Shown here in pieces: positions 9,646-63,731 of a stretch of 63,936 nt of DNA. A program made the position numbers and the translations under genes. This stretch comes from Emiliania huxleyi CCMP1516 (lineage: Eukaryota): positions 187,457 to 251,392 of the forward strand of contig NW_005201298.1 in the NCBI RefSeq assembly GCF_000372725.1. Reading direction: 5' to 3'. Below the pieces are notes generated by a model. That model was given only the letters and a program-made list of their open reading frames with translations. It made no database searches and was not told where the DNA came from. Positions within the stretch are counted from its first letter, which is position 1. Each line of letters opens with the position of its first letter.

Positions 9646-12600
9646 TCACTCAGATGTGGAAGCGGAGGCGGCGGCCGGCTCGCCCGCCTCGGGTAGCGCG
9701 TCGAGCACGGCGCGGAGCTCGTTGTACGCCTATCATCACTTAGCTCACCAGCTCACCAGCCCACCACCAACTAGCGAGCCGGCAGCGCGGGAGCTCCACG
9801 GCAAGCCTTCTCCATCGGGGGCCTCGCAGACGCGCTCGCCTGAGGGGCGGTGAGGCGGCGCGTGGATCGATGCCGCCGTCTCCCTCCCCGCCCGCGACAA
9901 GAGCGCTCGAGTCGTGCGCCAGACGCTCTCGTGACGCTCTCGTGACGCTCTCATGGGTGGGCGGGCTGCTCTAGCCCTCGCCTCGGACAGCCAGCGCGCA
10001 GTCTGCTTGAGCAGGAGCGGCCTCACCCGCCGAAAGTGCGCCGCGACCGCCGCCTGGTGAATGAATGGACTGATTAACGAGTTGACTGACTCATTGACCC
10101 GCCGAAAGTGCGCCGCGGCCGCCGCCTCGAAGCCGGCGGGCGGGCACTTGATCATGTCCCGCATCGCGTAGCGCATCGTCTGCAGGCGCAGGTCCTCGTT
10201 GTACTCGCGCGAGCGCTGCTCGCCCGCGGGGGTGTTCTCCTATGGGGGAGATAGGGGGGAGATATGGGGGCGATCTCGGTATGGGGGAGGTCTGCTCGCC
10301 CGCGGGAAGTTCTTCTCCTCCTCGGCGTAGCCCGGCTCGTTGAAGTACGGCTTCGGCACCTATCTCCCCCAGATCTCCCCGTGTCTCCCCAGCTCCCCCC
10401 AGCTCCCCCCACCGAGGCGCGCGGCGTCGGCACCATGATGATCGACTGGATCGAGACGAGCACCTGTGCTCACGGCTAGAGGTGTGAAGAGGCGCTGTTC
10501 ACACCTCCACCACGATGATCGACTGGATCGGGGCGAGCACTTGCAGCAGCGTCGAGCCGGAGCTGCTCGCCGAGGGCGGAGTCCACCCCTCGCCGTGCCA
10601 CGTGCCGAGCAGCGAGAGGCACACCTTGCCGTCCGAGTAGTGGTTCGGGTTCATTAGTCAATTCGTTAATTAGCTAATTAGCTCATGAACACCTTGCCGT
10701 CCGAGTAGAGGTTCGGGTTGAAGCGCACCATGCCGCCGCCCGTCGTCTGCAGGTTGACCAGCGGAGGCACGGAGGGGTACTCTGCCGGGATGAAGACCTA
10801 TTCGCCCATGTCGGTGGGGGCGTGAGGACCACGCCACTCCGGACGGGCGGGGCGGCTTCCGCGGGGGGGGGGGGGGGGGGAAGGGGGGGGTGGAAGGAAA
10901 CCTGGAACTCCAAAAGGCCCAACGCGTAGGGGGTCTCGTGCGTCGTGTCGAGCACCTCCCCAGGGCCCGAAAAGAGCACCTGGAGAGCGCACGCCCCTCC
11001 CTTGACTCCCTTGAAGGAATGAACTCGTTCACCTGAGTCGAACGGAGGGAATCAACTCGTTGAATCGAGCACCCCCCTTTTTAAGGGGGGGGATTCCCCC
11101 CCCATTTCCTCATGGAAATTATTGAAACGCGTTGAGGACGTCCATCCTCAAACCCCTTAATGAGTTAATTCATCAATGGACTTCATTGAAGCGCCTTCAG
11201 CACGTCCATCCTCAACCCAGCTCCATGCATTAACACTCCATTACTTACTTAATGCAACTTCATTGAAGCGCCTTCAGCACGTCCATCCGGCTCTCATCCT
11301 TGAGCACGACGATGCACGACTCGGCGCCTACTCTCGCCGCGTCTCGGCTCATCTCGGCCCGTCTCCCCCTCGACCTCTCCAGGCAAGCCGTGTCCGCGCC
11401 GCACGGCAAGTTGCCCTCGCCCGACAGCGACTTGCACTCCTGCAGCAGCCGCTTCACCTTGCTGCGCGCCGCGGCCTCAAAGGGCGACTGCGCGATGTTC
11501 TGGCGGTAGTAGTGGTTGTACCGCCCCGCGCCGTCCGCCATGCCAACTTCGTCGAACGAGAGCTCGGCCAGCTCCGCGCCGTACGCCTCGTTGACCGTTC
11601 GCAGCATCGCGGCGGCGCCGCCGTACTCCTCCTCGGCCGCCGCGGCGTCGGCGGCGGCGCGCTCGCTCACCAAAGAGGAAAGGCCGCCGCCCGGCCCGCC
11701 CTCGCCCCCGCCCCCGCCTCCCTGCTGCAGGCGGGGGAGGAGGCGGCGGAGGGCCTGCACCTCCAGCGGCGGGAAGTGGTCCTTGCACTTGTGCTCGAGG
11801 ATGTCGGCCGCCTGGAGAACCAGTTGACTGATCAACGAGTGGGCTACTCAACGATTGAACGCGTGCTCGAGGATGTTGGTCGCCGTGTGCAGGAGGGGCA
11901 CGTCGAGGTTGTCGCAAGCGGCGAGCGTCTGCACGAAGGCGGGCACGCGCGAGGCGGCGTGGAGCAGAAGCTGCGCCGTGTCGGAGAGCATCTTCTTCGG
12001 GTGCCTATGCAAAAAAGAAATGCCGCTAGCGAAAAAGAAATACGCCCGGGTGTCGGAGAGCATCTTCTTCGGGTGCCTATGCAAAAAAGAAATGCCGCTA
12101 GCGAAAAAGAAATACGGCCGGGTGTCGGAGAGCATCTTCTTCGGGTGCCTATGCAAAAAAGAAATGCCGCTCCCGAAAAAGAAATACGTGCGGGTGTCGG
12201 AGAGCATCTTCTTCGGGTGCCTATGCAAAAAAGAAATGCCGCTCCGGAAAAAGAAATACGTGCGGGTGTCGGAGAGCATCTTCTTCGGGTGCCTATGCAA
12301 AAAAGAAATGCCCCTCCGGAAAAAGAAATACGTGCGGGTGTCGGAGAGCCTCTTCTTCGGGTGCCTATGCAAAAAAGAAATGCCGCTCCGGAAAAAGAAA
12401 TACGGGCGGGTGTCGGAGAGCCTCTTCTTCGGGTGCCTATGCAAAAAAGAAATGCCGGTCGCGAAAAAGAAATGCGTGCGGGTGTCGGAGAGCATCTTCT
12501 TCGGGTGCCTATGCAAAAAAGAAATGCCGCTCCGGAAAAAGAAATACGAGCGCGTGTCGGAGAGCATCTTCTTCGGGTGCCTATGCAAAAAAGAAATGCC

Positions 12601-15600
12601 GCTCCCGAAAAAGAAATACGTGCGGGTGTCGGAGAGCATCTTCTTCGGGTGCCTATGCAAAAAAGAAATGCCGCTCCGGAAAAAGAAATACGGGCGGGTG
12701 TCGGAACGCATCTTCTTCGGGTGCCTATGCAAAAAAGAAATGCCGCTCCCGAAAAAGAAATACGGGCGGGTGTCGGAGAGCCTCTTCTTCGGGTGCCTAT
12801 GCAAAAAAGAAATGCCGCTCCGGAAAAAGAAATACGGCCGCGTGTCGGAGCGCATCTTCTTCGGGTGCCAGCCCAGCTTGTCGGGCTGGTCGACGCGCAA
12901 GCCCTCCCGCGCCTTGACGTCGCAGAGCTTGCGCAGGAACTCGACCAGCATCGCCGCGAGCTTGGAGGCGCGGGACGGGTGGGAGGCAAAGGCGGAGCAG
13001 ACGCCCGCCTCGTCGGTGAGGAAGAGGAGGGCCGCCAGCGACGAGTGGGCGAGCTGGAGGAAGCCCTTGGCGGTGCGGCGGCACTGCTCGAGGCGAGCCT
13101 CGCGCGCCTGCCTCTCCTTCCCGCTCAGCGCCGCCCACGCCGCCTCCTTCTCCTTGTCGGCGGCAGAGGCCGGCGGCGGGGCCGGCAGCGACGCCGCCTT
13201 GTCCCCGCGACGCACCGAGGCTGGCATCTCCTCCTGCCTCGTGTGCACGTCCGCCAGCCGGCCGAGCGCATCCGCCAGCAGAAAGACCGCCTCCTTGACC
13301 AGCGTCTCTGCAAACTCTCCAAACGCCGCGCCGCCGTCGCCGCCACCGCCCGGCTCGAGCGAGGCGGCCGCGGCGGCCTGCAGCGCCCTCCACGGCTGCG
13401 GCTGCTGCCACAGCGCGCGCAGCACGCTCATGATGCGGAAGCGGTCGCCGTTCTTGTCGGAGACGGCCGCCGCGTTTGTGTGCAGCCCGAGCTCGACGTA
13501 GAGGGAGAGCAGGGGCAGCTGCACCTCCGACGCCGCCTCGGCGTCGATCAGCCTGACAAGCGGCCCCGCCACGCCGCGCAGCCGCGAGCCGGCCAGCCGC
13601 GCCGCGTGCTCGTCCATCTGCACGAGCGTCTCGAGCAGCTCGGCGGCGGTGAAGCGGACGAAGGGCGAGGAGGCGAGGGCCTGGAGTTGCGGAGAGCTCG
13701 CCGCGTCAAGACGGGACAGCCAAGGGCGGGCGGTGTGGGCGCGTCCGATTTCTTGTTTCCTGCCGGCCGACCCAGCGGCACGCGCAGCGCGAGACGAGGG
13801 GCGCCGCAACCTCCGAAGCAACGAGAGCCTGGGGGTCCTTGCGCGCGAACAGCACGAGGAGCGCAAACACGTCGGTCAGCGTCGAGGCGGGCAGGGCGGC
13901 GCACGCGTCGGCCGCCGCCGCGCTGTCGGCGCAGAGATGCTCGAGCCACGCGCCTTTTCACAGCAGTGGGTGTGAAGAGACGCTGCTCACACCTCTCGCC
14001 AGAGATGCTCGAGCCCCGCGCCTTTTCACAGCAGTGGGTGTGAAGAGACGCTGCTCACACCTCTCGCCAGAGATGCTCGAGCCCCGCGCCGGCGAGGCCG
14101 CAGAAGCGGAGGAGGAGGGGCTGCAGCCGCGGGCCGTCGAGCAGCAGCCGGTACGCCAGCACCGCCGCCTGCGCCTTGCCCTGCCCAGCCTCCTTGATCG
14201 CGTGCAAGTGTGCGTCGAAGGCCGCCGCACCGCCCTCGGGAGGGGGGGCGCGCACCTTGCGAGATATGGCGGAGATGTGGGGGAGATATGGGAGATAGCC
14301 CTCGGGCGGAGGAGCGCGCACCTTGCGAGATATGGCGGAGATGTGGGGGGAGATATGGGAGATAGCCCTGGGGAGGAGGAGCGCGCACCTTGCGAGATAT
14401 GGCGGAGATGTGGGGGGAGATATGGGAGATAGCCCTGGGGAGGAGGAGCGCGCACCTTGCGAGATATGGCGGAGATGTGGGGGAGATATGGGAGATAGCC
14501 CTCGGGCGGAGGAGCGCGCACCTTGCGAGATATGGCGGAGATGTGGGGGGAGATATGGGAGATAGCCCTGGGGAGGAGGAGCGCGCACCTTGCGAGATAT
14601 GGCGGAGATGTGGGGGGAGATATGGGAGATAGCCCTGGGGCGGAGGAGCGCGCACCTTGCGCTGCAGCTCGAGGAGGATCCGCTCGCAGCGGCGCATGGC
14701 GGGGAGGCGGCCTATGAGAAAAGAAGAGCCGCTGGAGGAAAAGAAATACGGCCGGCTCCTCGCATGGCGGGGAGGACGCCTATGAGAAAAGAAGTACCGC
14801 TGGAAGAAAAGAAATACGGCCGGCTCCTCGCATGGCGGGGAGGACGCCTATGAGAAAAGAAGTACCGCTGCAAGAAAAGAAATACGGCCGGCTCCTCGCA
14901 TGGCGGGGAGGACGCCTATGAGAAAAGAAGTGCAGCTGGAAGAAAAGAAATACGGCCGGCTCCTCGCATGGCGGGGAGGACGCCGACGTGCAGCGCGCGC
15001 AGGCAGAGGAAGAAGCACTCCGTTACAAAGTGCAGCTCCGCCTAATAAACGAATGAACGAATTCACGACTCAGCTAATTCACTCCGTCACAAAGTGCAGC
15101 TCCGCCTCGGCGTCGCCGCCGCCCGCCGCGACCCCCTCCGCCGACCCACCAGCAGCGCCAGCCGGCGGTGGGGTGTTCGGGGGGGGAGCGGGCTCGGCGG
15201 CGGCGTCGCTGCTCGAGAGGAGGGAGAGCTTGATCGCCTGCGCGGAATGAAGGACTTGAATTGACGCATCCACTAGTTGATGCGTCAGAGGGAGAGCTTG
15301 ATCGGCCTGCGCCAGCTCGTCCGCCTCCTCGTTGGACTCCTCGAACCCTCCCGACCCACCCGCACCCGCTCCGCCGCCGCCAGAAGGGTCGCCGCCAGCT
15401 TCGGTGAGCCTGAGGCGCTCCTCGGCTTGCGGCCGGCGGCGGCGCGCCGACCACGCCGCCTCGCGCCGCCGCTCTCGCTCGTGCCACCTCGAGATATGGG
15501 GAGATATGGGGAGATATGGGGAGATATGGGGAGATATGGGGAGATATGGGCCGCTCTCGGTCGTGCCATCTCCAATCGAGCTCTTCATACTTGGTTCATT

Positions 15601-16631
15601 CGTTCGTCCGTTCACTCGTTCATTAAGACGCGCCACCTCCAATCGAGCCGCGCGAAGCCGTCATGCCCCTTGCCGTCGCGGAGAGCCGTCGGGGTGAGGA
15701 AGGGGCCGCACAGCTGCAGCAGCACCGCCGCCGCGCTAAGCAGCGCCCCGTCCGACGAGCAGCTCTGCCGCGCCTAATCAACTCATCAGCGGATATGAAC
15801 GAGTTGACCCATTCACCCGCCCGACGCGCCGCTCTGCCGCGCCCGCATCGCCTCTTGAGGGCTCTGCTGCTTCCCCCCGTCTGCGTTCGCGCCGTTGGCC
15901 GCGAGCACAGCGCCCAGCCAGCGCAGCGCGGCCGCCTTGGCTGCCGGGTCCTTGAAGAGCGCCGCCGTGAGGATGACCCGCTGCCTGCATGGACATGTCT
16001 AACAGACCAGTCACGGACCCTTGTGTAGAGGGGAGTAGGCGCCACGAGGTGGTCTGCTGCCGGCTCTGCAGCTGCCACACCTCCTCCCACCCGCCCTCGA
16101 GCACGGCGCGGTCCTAATTAAACGAATTCACTGATTCGCTGAGCACTGATCAACTAATTCACCCCGCCCGCCCTCGGGCACGGCGCGCTCCTCGTGATGC
16201 CACCCTCCCCCGCCAGGGGCAGGCGCCGCCATCCCGTACCTTGACCAAGGAATCCGTCCACCGTTAGTACGCTGAGTGGCGAATTCGTTTCTCCGGCGCT
16301 GCCATCCCGCGCACCTTACTCAATCAGTTCAGAACCAGTCAGCCATCACCAGCCTGACCCCGGGGCCGGGCAGGCGCCAACCCCGCGCACCCCGTCAGCC
16401 CAGCCGGCGAGGGGCTGAGCAGGCGCAGCACTCCGAGCCCCTCTGCCTCCCGGCCAGTCCACTCGCCAGAGCGGAGCCTGCCGCTCTCCTAGAGGCCAGG
16501 TCAGGCTCCCGTCTCCACACACACACACGAGGTGGTGGGGCAAGGGCCAGGCTGCTCCCTCGCGACTCCACGTCTGACGACAGGAGCCGGCACGGCATTC
16601 GAAGTGCAAGGCCCGGTGCGCGTGGGTGAGC

Positions 16632-16715
<84 letters not shown>

Positions 16716-17961
16716 AGTGCGTGTGTGTGTGTGTGAATTGTGTGTGCCGCGTGCTGTGTGTGTGTGTGTGCTGTGTGAGTCTGTCCGCTCTCCTCGTCAA
16801 GCCGCCGCACGAGCACCGCGCGGGCGGCAACGCCGTGCGGAAGCGGCTTGAGCGGCCCGCCACCCGCCGCCGCGCCGAGGCCGAGAAGCAGCTCCGCCTC
16901 TGCCAGCACCGCCCGCCACCCGCCGCCGCCGCCGCCCGAGGAGGAGGAGGAGGAAGGGGAGAAAGAGACGTCGACCACAGCGCCGCCCGAGTACGGGTCG
17001 AGCCGGCGCAGCAACGACTCGAGTGCCGGGCCGTATACGCTCTCCTGCTCCGCCAGCGAGAGCGACGTGGCGACGGCGGTCACAAACGGCGCCGCCGCCG
17101 CCGAAGCCTTGAGCAAGCCGACGAGGTCGCTCTCTCCAGAGTCGCCGTAGAGGGAGAGCCCGTCCTCCTCAGCGGCCCCCGAGAGGAGGGCCTGCCTCGC
17201 GTGGTGCAGCGCGACCTCGCACCCGAACGCCGCCGCCGCCGCCGCGCTCGCCTGCTGCAGCTGCGGCTGCTGACGCTCCCAGCAGTGTATTATATTATAT
17301 TATATTATATTATATTATATTATATTATATTCGCCTGCTGCAGCTGCGGCTGCTGACGCTCCCAGCAGTGCTGCAGGTAGCGCAGGCCGCGCTCGTCCCC
17401 GTGCGCGTACGACTGGGTTCGGTCCCGCACCTGAGGCAGGGGGAGATGGGGGGAGATAGGACGGAGATACGGCACCTGAGGGGCGAAGGAAGGCCGCGGA
17501 CGTGTGCGTCGCGGACGTGCCACCCGGCCGGGCCGCACCCTCCTCCCGCTCACTGCCCCCCCCCCCCCACTACCCCTCGCGCTCACCGCCCGGTGCAGCG
17601 CGTCGGCGCCGTCTGCCGGCGCGGCCGACAGAGCAAAGCCGGCCTGGAGGGCGGCGAGCCCCGCGGCGTCGAGGCCGAGCCGCGGCGCGGGACGCGCCTC
17701 GAGTTTCGGGCGCTTGGCGGTCGGCCGCGCCATCGTCGGAGGGGGCGCCATCGCCATCGCCATGTCTTCGTCCTCGTCCATGTCGGTCGACGCGCCGTCC
17801 GTCTCGCCGTCCGTCCCGCCGCCCTCCTCCATCATGTAAAAGTACTCGGAGGCGGCCGCCTCAATGTTGCCACCCGCATTCTGGAGCAGCGTCCCGGCCT
17901 GGCCGGCGTCAATCCCGAGCATGCCCACGAGCGTAGCCACAGAGGCCGCATACTCGTCCAT
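9646..17961 (-). CDS. Multi-exon ubiquitin-system protein: N-terminal UBA-like domain, Ufd2/UBE4 core-like region, C-terminal BIRC6-type UBC (E2) domain
   Basis: UBA-like: [33 protein letters not shown]. Ufd2-core-like: [30 protein letters not shown] and [35 protein letters not shown]6-like E2 with catalytic Cys: [69 protein letters not shown]. Confidence 0.8.
11978..12869 (-). repeat. 72-bp tandem array (12 units plus a partial), intronic
   Basis: Units start at 11978 + 72n up to 12842. On the minus strand each unit reads GCACCCGAAGAAG...TTTTTTGCATAG. Confidence 0.95.
14256..14655 (-). repeat. 66-67-bp tandem array (6 units), intronic
   Basis: Minus-strand unit GTGCGCGCTCCTCC...ATATCTCGCAAG. 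Confidence 0.9.
14712..14985 (-). repeat. About 68-bp tandem array (4 units), intronic
   Basis: Minus-strand unit GCGTCCTCCCCGCCATGCG...TTTTCTCATAG. Confidence 0.9.
16633..16775. repeat. (GT)n microsatellite
   Basis: Directly visible. Confidence 0.95.
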
Positions 17962-28567: not shown

Positions 28568-30586
28568 ATGGTCCCCAAGGTAGCAGCGCGCGAGGAACCG
28601 CTTCTCCCCGCCTCGGAGGGCTACGTGGAGTACCCAGCGGCGCGGCGGCAGGCGCTGCCGCGCTGGATCACCGTCGCCGGCGCCGGCATGGGCGTCGCCA
28701 CGCTCCTCCTCCTCATCTCGGCAGCGTCCCAGCACAGCGCTCCGACGTCTTCTTCGTCGGTCATGCCGTCGGCGGCCGCGGCCGGCGCGGCGTCGGGGGC
28801 GGTGCTCTCGGGCGTCCTGGACCTGCCGGCGCAGCAGCAGCCGCAGACGCACCTCCTCGCGGCGCAGTCGGCGCGGGAGGAGCCGGCGGCTGCGCGGAAG
28901 AAGGGCGTGCACGCGGTCCGGTTGAGCAAGGTTGAGCGGACGGCGCGGCAGCACGCGCTGGAGCTGAACGACGAGACCTCGCAGGGGCTGTTTGCCCTCG
29001 GCGGAGCCACCACCAACCTCATCGCGGCGGATGGCGACGCGGGGACGGCGACAGTTGAGCTGAAGGACTTCCAAGATGCGCAGTACTACGGCGAGATTTC
29101 GATTGGCACTCCGCCCCAGACCTTCTCCGTCGTCTTCGACACCGGGTCGGCAAACCTCTGGGTGCCCTCGTCGCGCTGCAAGGGCTTCAACCTCGCGTGC
29201 TTCCTCCACCGCCGCTACGCAAGCGACAAGTCGGACACCTTTGTGCGCGATGGCACGCCCTTCGCAATCAAGTACGGGTCCGGCTCGATGTCCGGCTTCA
29301 TCTCGCACGACAAGATCAGCGTCGGGTCGCTCACTCTCAAGAACGCCTCCTTCGCCGAGGCCGTCACCGAGCCCGGCGCCGCGTTTGTTCTCTCAAAGTT
29401 CGACGGCATCCTCGGCCTCGCATACCCGTCGCTCTCGGTCCACTGCCTCACGCCCGCCATACAGCACTGTGAGGAGACGCTGTTCACACCCGCAGCTGTG
29501 AGCAGGTCAACGGCCTTACGCCCGCCATACAGCACTGTGAGGAGACGCTGTTCACACCCGCAGCTGTGAGCAGGTCAACGGCCTCACGCCGGTGATGCAG
29601 GAGCTGATCAAGCAAGGCCAGCCCATACCTCCCCATATCTCCCCATATCTCCCCATATCTCCCCATATCTCCCCATATCTCCCCATATCTCCCCATATCT
29701 CCCCAGATCTCAAGCAAGGCCAGCCCGCGACGAGCTAACTACTACTCAACAGCTAATCGTTACTAATGAACGAAGTCATCACCAGGCCAGCTCGCGGCGC
29801 CGCTCTTCTCCTTTTGGATGAGCAAGGACCCGAAGCAGACGCCGGGCGGCATGCTCTTCCTGGGCGGCGTCGACGACTCCTACTACACCGGCGACCTGCA
29901 CTGCCTCCCCATACCTCCCCATGTCCCCCATATCTCCCCCATATCTCCCCATATCTCCCGCACAGGCGACCTCCACTACCTCCCGATATCTCCCCATATC
30001 TCCCCATATCTCCCCATATCTCCCCGTATCTCCCGCACAGGCGACCTCCACTACCTCCCCATCACACGCAAGGGCTACTGGCAGTTCGACCTCGACGCAG
30101 TGTCGGTCGGCGGAAGCGACGTCCTCACAAAGGGCTCCGCCATCGCCGACACGGGCACCTCGCTCGTCGTCGGCCACGATGGGTGTGAACAGCGTCTCTT
30201 CACACCTCTGGCTGTGAACAGGCACCTCGCTCATCGTCGGCCCCACCGAGCAGCTGAAGAAGGTGATTGGCAAGCTGGGCCTCGCGGACGCGCAGGCGGG
30301 GATGGGCGGGCAGTACTCGATTCCGTGCGACAAGAAGGGGGAGCTGCCCACGCTCTCGTTCACCTTGGGCGGCAAGACCTTTAGCCTCGAGTCGGCCGAG
30401 TACGTGCTGGAGATGGAGCTGCTCGGCAAGAAGATGTGCACCCTCGGGCTGATGCCGATGGACGTACCAAAGCCGGCTGGCCCGCTCTGGATCCTCGGCG
30501 ACGTCTTCCTCTCAAAGTACTTCTCGGTCTACGACTTTGGCAACGACCGCGTCGGCTTCGCCGAGGCGGTGGCGACGGCGCCGTAA
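28568..30586 (+). CDS. Pepsin-family (A1, cathepsin D-like) aspartic protease with an N-terminal signal-anchor, multi-exon
   Basis: [41 protein letters not shown], second catalytic IADTGTS (split by intron 30155-30221) and WILGDVFL. Confidence 0.95.
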
Positions 30587-38711: not shown

Positions 38712-41700
38712 ATGAACACACTCCGTCTGGCGAACCGCGCCGCCGCGAGGTCGGTGCGCCAAATCAAGCACGGGCAGCTCCTTGGCAGTCGCGCCATCGC
38801 CAACACGGCTGCGCGCAGCCTCGGCGTGCACGTGCCAGCGGTGCTGCGCTCGCAGGCCTCCCTTCTCAGCACAGCGAGGTCGGTCGAGCACTCTGACCAG
38901 GAGTGGACTGCGAGCGCGGCGAGCCCGCCGTTTGACCCGTCCGACGAGGCCACGGTCCAAGCGTGGACAGAGCGCTTCCTCGACGCCGTGCGTGACGTGC
39001 CGGCGGCGACGGACCCGGCTCGGAGCGCGGCGGTGCTGAGGGAGCTCGTCAAGTCGAACCTGCTCTCCTTCACGGACATGCGCGACGCGCCCGAGAAGTT
39101 CTTCCTCGCGCACCGCCTCCTCGCCACCGTCGGCCTAGGCGGCTTTGGTGTCCGCTTCACCGTCCAGTTCAACCTGTTCGCAGGCTCGATAGTCGGGCTG
39201 GGCGGGCCGGAGCAGGTGGCGAGCCTGCGCGAGATCACCCGAGATTTCACGAGATCACTCGCGATCACCCGAGCAGGTGGCGAGCCTGCGCGACATCCAG
39301 GCGGCGGGCCAGCTGGGCTGCTTCCTGCTGACAGAGGCGCAGGCGGGCGTGCTGTCTGGACTGATCGTCGAGACTACCTGCGAGTGGGACGCGGGCTCGC
39401 AAGAGGCGCGCCGTAGGTAGACGACCCTCCGCCTGCGCCACCCCTGCCATTCCCCCGCCAACATCGTACATGAAGCGCGCCGGCGGCCGCCTCCTCTGGC
39501 ATACCTCGACACAGTGGCGGGCGTCTCTGCCACAGAGTCAGACCCCGAGCCCCGCTGTCGCAGTTCGTCCTGCACACGCCGAGCGACAAGGCGGCCAAGA
39601 ACTGGATATCGCAGGGGTACACGGCCGAGCGCGGCGTCGTCATCGCAGACTTGGTCATCGGCGGAGAGAGCCACGGGTCGCACGCCTCCCTCCTCTCGTT
39701 GCGACGCCGAGTGAGTGAGAGTACTGAGTGCCGAGTGGGCTCTGGTCAGGCCGCACGCCTTCCTCCTCTCGATGCGCGACGCGGAGGGGCAGCTGCTGCC
39801 CGGCATCACCGTCGAGGACATGGGCACAAAGACGGTGGCGAACGACCTCGACAACGCGCGCGTCTGCTTCGACAAGGCCACGCTAACCACCGGCCGCCAC
39901 GCGGAGCGAGCCGGTCCGCTGGCCAAGCAGCGGATGCACTTGAGGTAGGTCCGGCTGCCAAAGGACGCGATGCTAAACAAGTTCGCGGACGTGCGAAACG
40001 ACGCGTACGTGCAGACCACCGACGAGCGGATGCGGATCGAGGTGATCGGCCAGCGCCTCCTCACGGGACGGCTCGCGATCGCAGAGGCGACGCCCTCGCG
40101 ACCTCGGCTCCATCTCGGCTCTATCCTGGCTCCATCTCGGCTCTATCCTGGCTCTATCTCGGCTCTCTCTCGGCTCTATCTCGGCTCTATCTCGGCTCTA
40201 TCTCTCGCAGAGGCGAGGCCCCTCGCGACCTCGGCTCCATCTCGGCTCCCTCTCGGCTCCCTCTCGGCTGTCTCTCGGCTCTCTCCCGGCTGTCTCTCGG
40301 CTCACCTCGGCTCCTCTCGGCGCACGGAGCATGCGATCACCGCTGGTGCCCTGCGACCTACCTCCAGGCGGCCCTGGCGAGCTGCCGCGTGCTTCACCTC
40401 CGCACCGAGCAGTACGCGCGCGGCAAGGTCTGCAACGGGCTTGCGGGCGAGGTGCGCCTGTCCGAGATGCCGCAGCTGAAGGCGGTCTTCCGCGAGTCCG
40501 AGGCGAGGGTAGCCGAGAGGGGAGCGGAGAGGAGCCGAGGTGAGGCCGAGGGGTGGCCGAGGTGAGCCGAGGTGCAGCTGAGGGGCAGCCGAGGTGAGGC
40601 CGAGAGGAGCCGAAAGGGCCTGAGAGGAACGAGAGGGGCCGAGAGGAGCCGCGAGGAGCCGCGAGGAGCCGAGAGGAGCCGAGAGGAGCCGAGAGGAGAG
40701 GAGCCAAGGTGAGCCGAGGACACGTCCCCGACACGTCCCTGTAGGCGGCGCTCGAGCAGATGGCAGCCTTCACTGCTGGCGTCGAGCAGCGGCTGAACAG
40801 CTGCCTGCGCGCAGGCACCATCCCGGACGCGGATCTCGTCGATGCGATCGCGGTGGCCAACCAGTCCCCGAGATTGCCCGAGAGTATCCGAGATTGCCCG
40901 AGCTTGCCGGAGATTCCCCGTCGCCAACGAGCCTCTCCTCGGTCGGGGCCCAGTTGCGCTCATCCCTCGTGCTCCTGCTCCTCCCGGATCTTGGGTAGGT
41001 TGGCCAAGGTCCGGGAGATGAGTTAGTTAATGAGCTGGGTAGGTGGCCAAGATCCGTTGCATCGACGTCGCGCTCGAGCGCGCGCACGCGCTGCGCAAGG
41101 AGGTCGGCAGCTACGCTCTGATGCACGAGATTTCTCGAGATTGCACGAGATTACCCGAGAGTATCCGAGAGTCTAGGTCGGCAGCAACGCTCTGATGCAC
41201 GAGATTGCACGAGATTGCACGAGATAACCCGAGGTTGTCCGAGAGTACAGGTCGGCAGCTACGCACTGATGCACGCGACGGGGTTCGAGCTGGTCGACAT
41301 GCTGCTCTGCTGCAAGTTCGCCGAGGGGGACAGCCGCATCCTGCAGCAGAAGCTCACCCGCGACCGGCTCAAGGCGCTGCAAAAGGGCGGCGCGGCAGCC
41401 GCCCTCTCTGGCTTGCTCGGCGAGCACCGCGCCGAGGTGTTCGCCGCGGCGAATCTGGCTCGGAAGCTGCAGCCGGCGAGATTAACCGGGGTTGCCCCCC
41501 CTGATTACCCGAGATCACCCGAGATTGCTGAGTTGGCTTGCGGATTGTGTTTAGGCGGGGAGGGACGTCGCCAAGCTCGCCGCCGCCATGGACGAGCACT
41601 GGCGCGAGATCTACGACCTCGCCGAGATGATTGCAGAGCGGCACATCCGCACTGGACCGCGCGCCGCGTTTGTCGAGGGCCCTTCTGTGGAGCGGCTGAC

Positions 41701-45507: not shown

Positions 45508-50199
<4,692 letters not shown>

Positions 50200-60882: not shown

Positions 60883-63731
<2,849 letters not shown>

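Follow-up and report, generated by a model that had tools for sequence, protein, structure and literature searches.

The window, i.e. the whole stretch of DNA analysed, comprises 63,936 nt of the Emiliania huxleyi CCMP1516 assembly (RefSeq GCF_000372725.1, contig NW_005201298.1, positions 187,457 to 251,392 of the forward strand), and all coordinates below refer to it. The region is eukaryotic, its GC content is 62–71%, and its sequence is also present in marine metagenomes and in runs of cultured organisms. The gene that hosts the arrays described here lies on the minus strand. The part examined (11293–17961) yields an open frame upon in-silico splicing and comprises a UBA-like N-terminus and a Ufd2P core; the 3' end of the gene lies beyond the part mapped. 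Pfam searches identified PF10408 at 12871–13680 (E 1.1e-22) and PF14555 at 17692–17961 (E 4e-05) and gave no domain for 11293–11808, and the predicted product is a ubiquitin elongation factor E4/UFD2-like protein. At about 10000–11800 (minus strand), the gene presumably runs past the Ufd2P core into a region that, judged by eye from its motif, we take to be ubiquitin-conjugating-like.

Three arrays of stacked introns interrupt this gene on the minus strand, namely A1 (13954–14089), A2 (14256–14655) and A3 (14712–14983), and their removable parts, with the exons in between, span 1030 nt. Their units follow one grammar, in which G|GY and a 19–24-nt copy of the downstream exon are followed by a filler and AG, with GC or GT at the start and AG at the end. 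Tandem repeats were called by TRF at 13932–14090 for A1 (period 68, 2.3 copies), at 14232–14661 for A2 (period 67, 6.4 copies) and at 14693–14984 for A3 (period 68, 4.3 copies), the last unit being partial in each case and the partial copy corresponding to the exon start.

A1 consists of two identical 68-nt units (136 nt) with CCG|GC as first donor, AAG|GC at the internal junction and the acceptor TGAAAAG, and each unit is composed of a 22-nt exon copy, a 6-nt linker and a 40-nt dispersed element. The source of the copy is the start of the exon after A1 (13932–13953), which differs at one base from both intronic copies. As defined by RNA joints, exons of 166 nt (14090–14255) and 56 nt (14656–14711) lie between A2 and A1 and between A3 and A2, respectively, and a 58-nt exon (14984–15041) lies upstream of A3. 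A2 contains six units of 67, 67, 66, 67, 67 and 66 nt (400 nt) with AAG|GT at every junction and a filler of degenerate 10–11-nt CCCCATATCT-type repeats. It forms a (67,67,66)×2 higher-order repeat (TRF period 200, 98%), in which unit 3 equals unit 6 and units 2, 4 and 5 are the same. A3 contains four units of 68 nt (272 nt; first donor TCG|GC, internal junctions TAG|GC), each made of a 19-nt exon copy, identical in all four, and a T-rich filler ending in CATAG. Thus, the internal junctions juxtapose AG|GY (AAG|GC, AAG|GT and TAG|GC in A1, A2 and A3), as in recursive splicing.

The fillers measure 43–49 nt and come from dispersed families, so the introns are not built of duplicated local sequence alone. 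An initial annotation, made from the letters of the sequence, had described the arrays as 2 × 68, 6 × 67 and 4 × 68 nt, with a separate filler family in each and the order exon copy, filler and AG throughout. The two- and four-unit counts were confirmed, whereas the six-unit array is not strictly 6 × 67. The three fillers show no mutual similarity by shuffle test; the A3 family recurs, however, in a further array of the same gene (A0, 12005–12868) and in a single unit at 62247–62312, and the A2 filler matches position 29966 of the window. The order applies to A1 and A3, where the filler supplies the A of AG, but not to A2, where the AG lies within exon sequence that was duplicated (each end reads CGCAAG|GT) and both splice sites stem from duplicated AGGY. 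Folding of the unit RNA was no better than that of shuffles for A1–A3 (z −0.72, 0.60 and −0.79).

The annotation had also held that correct expression needs every unit to be removed. This is the case for A1, where none of three retention patterns is in frame and any unit kept shifts the frame, and for A3, where 4/15 patterns are in frame and every one contains a stop, but not for A2, where 19/63 patterns are in frame and stop-free, including retention of the last 66-nt unit alone. All 4095 patterns of A0 are in frame and stop-free, and its unspliced units would add 24-amino-acid repeats. A0 (minus strand) contains 12 units of 72 nt with a variant patchwork and four-gamete pairs in 6 of 21; it is a predicted intron outside the interval compared with RNA, and its unit folds better than shuffles (z −3.1).

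Single units and mixed stacks were found in the same gene on the minus strand. The 64-nt intron at 15042–15105 carries a 26-nt exon copy, an AT-rich filler and AG, with an RNA joint in 4/4 runs, and is the unexpanded state of the array grammar. At 15488–15636, two units with unrelated fillers are removed as a single 149-nt block according to an RNA joint. At 16240–16390, each of two units opens with a copy, now diverged, of the exon that follows, and an RNA joint removes a 151-nt block; alignment of their fillers is no better than that of shuffles, so these fillers are unrelated as well. The mixed stacks suggest repeated insertion at the same site. Two-unit stacks with differing fillers at one junction were also seen at 11147–11287 (minus strand) and at locus L048.

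Five more arrays with the same grammar lie in other genes on the plus strand, at 29438–29573, 29891–30040, 41103–41250, 48137–48610 and 49404–49547, with 2, 2, 2, 8 and 2 units, respectively. In the first of these, either orientation of the palindromic segment of the A1-family core matches about equally well. The array at 46610–47066 has five units of 88 nt, and its unit seemingly copies the end of the upstream exon and not the start of the downstream one; the adjoining peptide appears to resemble glucosamine-6-phosphate synthase. A perfect 40-nt duplication surrounds a (TATTA)n filler at 17248–17370; here the candidate cut lies close to the copy's 3' end, which is the mirror arrangement.

RNA and DNA contigs across the arrays

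RNA evidence was taken from contigs, not reads, of runs from other strains (X11, X12, X13 and X15; two studies), compared over 12870–16600. Fifteen of 25 RNA joints were listed, and 11 of those are introns of the host gene. A1 is spanned by contigs that join across exactly 136 nt in 4/4 runs, and joints of 400 nt for A2 and 272 nt for A3 were found in 3/4 runs each (X11, X12 and X13). RNA junction mapping, which the annotation had proposed as a check, thus shows the whole of A1, A2 and A3 to be absent from related-strain RNA at the G[TCA]..AG register. The same cut fits all 11 RNA-supported introns among the joints listed for this interval, with a clear exon copy in nine (in one of them in the second unit), a weak one in one and none in one. 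A 79-nt RNA-supported intron with a GA donor and without an exon copy was observed at 13681–13759 (minus strand), which is perhaps older than the others. For E. huxleyi, GC donors of 56–65% and acceptors that are almost all AG are given in the accessible text of PMC4028052.

The RNA at A1 carries the exon variant at 13948, which places the joint at most 6 nt from the 5' end of the copy and argues against jumps of reverse transcriptase. At A2 and A3, the RNA exon shows intron-type letters where the window exon departs from them, so that these window letters are either strain-private or errors. Two two-base departures were noted: at 12900–12901, the window differs from all eight runs compared (DNA and RNA), and at 14708–14709, a departure deduced from the RNA joint gives Val in the RNA and Arg in the window. 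In both cases the change is either private to the strain or an error of base calling. Some bins within A2 and A3 have an RNA depth of zero, which does not speak against retention.

Contigs from four DNA or unlabelled runs cross filler–copy–filler junctions at A1 (X1 and X9) and A2 (X1, X2 and X9). At A3, flank contigs of X1, X2 and X5 end at 14722 and resume near 14955, 29 nt inside the array on each side, from which we infer a multi-unit loop in the 31-mer graph. A 98-nt loop contig of X9 has a depth of 162 compared with 38–48 in the flanks, which is only a hint of extra copies. An empty, intron-free site was absent from the 10 joints listed for the four DNA runs, and three orthologous element sites (L030, L034 and L043) were all filled. 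The stacked-intron arrays are real and supported by RNA in related strains.

Repeat phase and the dispersed 40-nt element

A splice-blind scan of the window identified 62 direct-repeat loci with a period of 50–100, of which 44 were tested after dropping 17 of low complexity and leaving out the one at 48704; for multi-unit loci, excision lengths were set by hand from the periods. A locus passed if a G[TCA]..AG cut fell within −3 to +8 of the 5' end of the repeat on either strand, and the expectation was derived from shifted positions. While 14.7 were expected, 31/44 loci passed, a number reached in 0/200,000 simulations; a mirror control centred on the repeat's 3' end gave 16/44. All 11 multi-unit loci passed (3.8 expected), counting one doubtful locus, 46610–47066, which passes on the minus strand only and seems to represent another arrangement. 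Flanking sequence of 83 metagenome loci supplied 41 further brackets, of which 18 passed (expectation 6.0); the mirror test at the 3' end was passed by 11. The phase of minisatellites relative to splice sites is therefore non-random both in the window and in the metagenome flanks, as the initial annotation had anticipated, and its observation that the repeated unit equals one intron length also stands, the units being introns in register.

The 25-nt core motif of the A1 filler has six matches at four sites in the window and none in 100 shuffles. In metagenomes, mostly in two assemblies, 94 loci with the core were found (86 after removal of eight duplicates), and the downstream exon was matched at at least 14/20 positions in 73/86 loci compared with 3/294 chimeric controls. 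Units of this family have a median length of 68 nt, and the exon copy measures 13–42 nt (median 24; 65 single-unit loci). The core is 40 nt long in 49/59 single-unit loci, with a variable linker of 0–19 nt, and begins 25–32 nt after the donor in 50/59; the stretch in between is locus-specific and only the 3' 40 nt are common. An acceptor tail could be called at 80/87 family loci, most frequently as TGAACAG (47), TGAATAG (13) and TGAGCAG (6), and the TGAAAAG end of A1 recurs at one of these 80 loci, namely the ortholog L043. When the acceptor of the element itself was used, GC, GT or GA stood at the start of the copy in 59/67 cases and the length was 64–73 nt in 60/67.

The A1 core has no terminal inverted repeats; its ends form a direct repeat, and a palindrome lies inside it. 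A search of a viral sequence collection with the core gave no match. Truncated, reversed or head-to-head copies of the family were observed at L003, L007, L015, L065, L071 and L077, still with a direct repeat of 24–45 nt. A fixed 3' end, a ragged 5' junction and a long variable duplication together resemble target-primed reverse transcription. Microhomology of at least 3 nt between the upstream exon and the 3' terminus of the element occurs in 9/59 loci against a background of about 1.4%, but was not counted for target priming because it is inseparable from selection for donor context. Copy length and linker length correlate negatively, a relation that is partly built in. The A1 element is likely to be mobile.

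Proposed formation and expansion of the arrays

A1–A3 are spliceosomal introns made of head-to-tail copies of a ~68-nt intron, each of which probably arose by a single insertion of a short, likely mobile element with duplication of ~20–30 nt of exon and probably expanded later by slippage or unequal exchange between the two exon copies. In the first step, the element (40 nt for A1) carries the AG acceptor, and the donor G|GY is located at the 5' end of the exon stretch that was duplicated. With the acceptor in the element and the donor at the start of the copy, splicing removes the element together with one copy and restores the message. From this anatomy, which is observed, we infer insertion, target duplication and mobility, insertion being held at this grade because the joints listed for the four DNA runs include no empty site. 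In a second step, the intron would lie within a bracket of copy, filler and copy, whose copies could misalign in replication or recombination and thereby gain or lose one intron length. The product, (copy–filler)n–copy, would turn over like a minisatellite. In a third step, excision of the whole array or removal unit by unit in any order would lead to the same mRNA, and this product was seen in related strains. Since internal junctions read AG|GY and the donor is restored unchanged by every excision, all these routes would converge on one mRNA, and expansion may therefore be nearly neutral. That longer arrays are removed unit by unit is an evenly balanced proposal, with a modest preference for it because most single introns here measure 55–85 nt. 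Against the model, exchange between copies should also delete introns, and no intron-free joint was found among the 10 listed. The mixed stacks with unrelated fillers point to a second route to stacking, by repeated insertion at one junction.

Several observations bear on when amplification happened. In the host-gene ortholog L043, A1 is a single unit, and the variant common to both window units is already present in the exon copy of this unit; A2 there has different units that alternate between 72 and 67 nt. L020 and L078 represent one site with one unit and three units, respectively, the trio being arranged in an ABA pattern. Unit composition and number therefore differ between alleles (1 vs 2 units in A1, 1 vs 3 in L020/L078, and the units of A2), although single-unit orthologs are short-read metagenome contigs in which the assembler may have collapsed identical units. 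In 4/9 arrays, variants on the 5' side are confined to the first copy and the internal ones agree with the exon at these positions, which is what exchange inside the copy predicts. Over 51 nt the fillers of the array at 29438 do not differ, while its first copy and the exon do so at 2/17 positions. On the other side, the exon copy and not the first copy is the odd one out in A1, A2 and A3 of the window, which may be private to the window for A2 and A3, and the two-unit array at 29891 keeps its number in L034. The difference between one and n units could also have arisen by contraction from a multi-unit start.

The initial annotation had tied amplification to the intron-forming event rather than to random slippage. 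In an explicit form of this idea, template jumps or rolling-circle copying of excised intron RNA would produce a concatemer that is inserted at once, in keeping with A1 units identical over 68 nt, the identity of the four A3 exon copies, a unit that is exactly one intron, and the fact that about 8/87 A1-family loci are clearly multi-unit (by reading). This is unlikely, since orthologous sites hold one and two or one and three units, no fewer than two post-divergence steps are required for the A2 higher-order repeat, the ABA pattern of L078 and the alternation in L043, and variants are limited to the first copy in those 4/9 arrays. The match of unit and intron does not depend on amplification at intron formation either, because later misalignment of the 15–35-nt bracket copies adds exactly one intron. 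The link to the intron-forming event is thus unsupported, and unit-number differences at orthologous sites, the A2 higher-order repeat and mosaic exon copies favour a later date. Slippage or unequal exchange is thus favoured here, in a form that is not random but seeded by the ends of the intron itself.

Without any mobile element, repair of staggered breaks might produce the copy by fill-in and the filler by slippage, with spliceable products kept and then expanded. The variable lengths of the copy (13–42 nt) and the linker (0–19 nt) would agree with this, as would the simple 10–11-nt repeats of A2-type and many other fillers, and the accessible part of PMC3443670 puts forward break repair with direct repeats as a way in which introns may be gained. 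It could apply to A2 in particular. However, an A1 core fixed at 40 nt in 49/59 loci with a conserved acceptor tail would be hard to make de novo each time, and enrichment of the cut is limited to the copy's 5' end (31 vs 16), which leaves this explanation quite improbable for the arrays.

Repeated independent insertions at one exon junction, each regenerating its target, would account for the mixed stacks with unrelated fillers at 15488–15636 and 16240–16390 (RNA joints) and at L048. As an origin of A1–A3 they are very improbable, as the units of each array share locus-specific letters; the linker and the TGAAAAG end occur in both units of A1, and because this end is rare (1/80 loci), independent insertion explains the mixed stacks but not A1–A3. 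An artefact, be it assembly errors (the window departs from all eight runs at 12900–12901, so base errors could occur) or RNA joints from reverse transcriptase jumping between direct repeats, which promote template switching, can hardly be the cause, given that units differ from one another in ordered ways, DNA contigs of X1, X2 and X9 cross filler–copy–filler and those of X1, X2 and X5 break 29 nt inside A3, joints fall at the copy's 5' end, which is the site of G[TCA]..AG, wherever the copies differ, and the frame requires removal. Insertion of an element with a long target duplication followed by later expansion remains the preferred reading.

Relation to known systems and meaning for intron gain

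Introners are described in the accessible parts of PMC9860276 as having target duplications of 3–9 bp or none, a layout with the 3' site in the element and the donor from the duplication, and terminal inverted repeats in some families; dinoflagellate introners have duplications of 3–8 nt according to the accessible text of bioRxiv 10.1101/2020.10.14.339549. As in the introner-like elements of Symbiodinium and Polarella shown there (PMC9860276 Fig. 2B; bioRxiv 10.1101/2020.10.14.339549), dispersed short inserts contribute the AG, the target duplication contributes the donor, the mRNA is restored, and GC and GA donors are used. In contrast to introners as covered in these texts, where the duplication is 3–9 nt and fixed per family, it is variable here (13–42 nt) and makes up about one third of the intron; similarity is restricted to the 3' 40 nt instead of lying near both intron ends; and the A1 core is without the terminal inverted repeats of some families. 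Held against the criteria for introners, the A1 family has similar introns at many sites and takes one splice site each from element and target, but shows neither end-to-end similarity nor the introner duplication length nor terminal inverted repeats. The supplement of PMC9860276, as far as accessible, contains 653 elements in five E. huxleyi families with the target duplication given as '?' or 'N', and these may or may not be the families seen here. The main texts of PMC9860276 and bioRxiv 10.1101/2020.10.14.339549, in their accessible parts, make no mention of a tandem arrangement.

Tandem duplication and break repair are treated as sources of introns in the accessible text of PMC3443670 and PMC4974935. 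The arrays share with tandem genomic duplication (AGGT model) that the duplicated exon gives the donor, and A2 takes both sites from duplicated CAAG|GT. Unlike in that model, the copies are separated by a foreign filler of a dispersed family, which in most cases supplies the AG. The arrangement is also the usual state in this window and not a rare one, and it is the complete intron that has multiplied, its units following one another without an intervening exon.

For the birth of minisatellites between short direct repeats, two models (Haber and Louis 1998; Taylor and Breden 2000) are summarised in the accessible text of PMC3389668. The likeness to the process outlined there lies in the expansion of unique sequence between repeats, the incomplete last unit, the variant patchwork and the change in copy number, and the difference in the repeats, which measure 5–10 nt there and 19–30 nt here, where they were made by intron gain, and in the unit, which is a complete spliceable intron.

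Recursive splicing uses a juxtaposed acceptor and donor, and excision regenerates the donor, which is found at the internal junctions of the arrays as well. The same holds for fungal stwintrons in the accessible text of PMC8469720, in which the acceptor abuts the donor and excision regenerates the donor; but unlike nested stwintrons and the very long introns of recursive splicing, the arrays are complete ~68-nt introns in series, for which stepwise removal is hypothetical. The accessible texts of PMC10290126, PMC13518057 and PMC8469720 contain nothing on a chain layout of exon copy and filler, and the main text of PMC12130899, as far as accessible, is without E. huxleyi or haptophytes, while its datasets may bear on novelty. 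A long exon copy or intron chains in haptophytes were not found in the literature search, whose scope excluded most subscription papers, so that absence from print is unproven. Introner-type gain with a long duplication, together with intron chains, is apparently an undescribed variant of intron origin and multiplication. Most likely, A1–A3 are introner-like introns with an unusually long target duplication and secondary expansion as a minisatellite.

A broader proposal is tentative and rather doubtful, namely that most introns of this alga come from a new class of short elements with a 20–30-nt target duplication, probably by target-primed reverse transcription, and that accordion introns in chains, spliced unit by unit, amount to recursive splicing of minimal introns across the genome, with no exon in between. 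The exon copy itself, through which donors would be borrowed from GC-rich coding sequence, might explain why GC and GA donors are so numerous in such algae. For future work, introner searches that require end-to-end similarity would miss or miscall such families. Natural alleles of one intron that differ only in unit number would offer a test of whether a chain is removed as one or unit by unit by a spliceosome of short introns. The origin of new introns has been a question for a long time, and their gain is mostly traceless. The arrays tie intron gain to the birth of minisatellites, and most introns examined here record their origin in a long copy of the next exon, whose divergence from the exon may be used as a clock.
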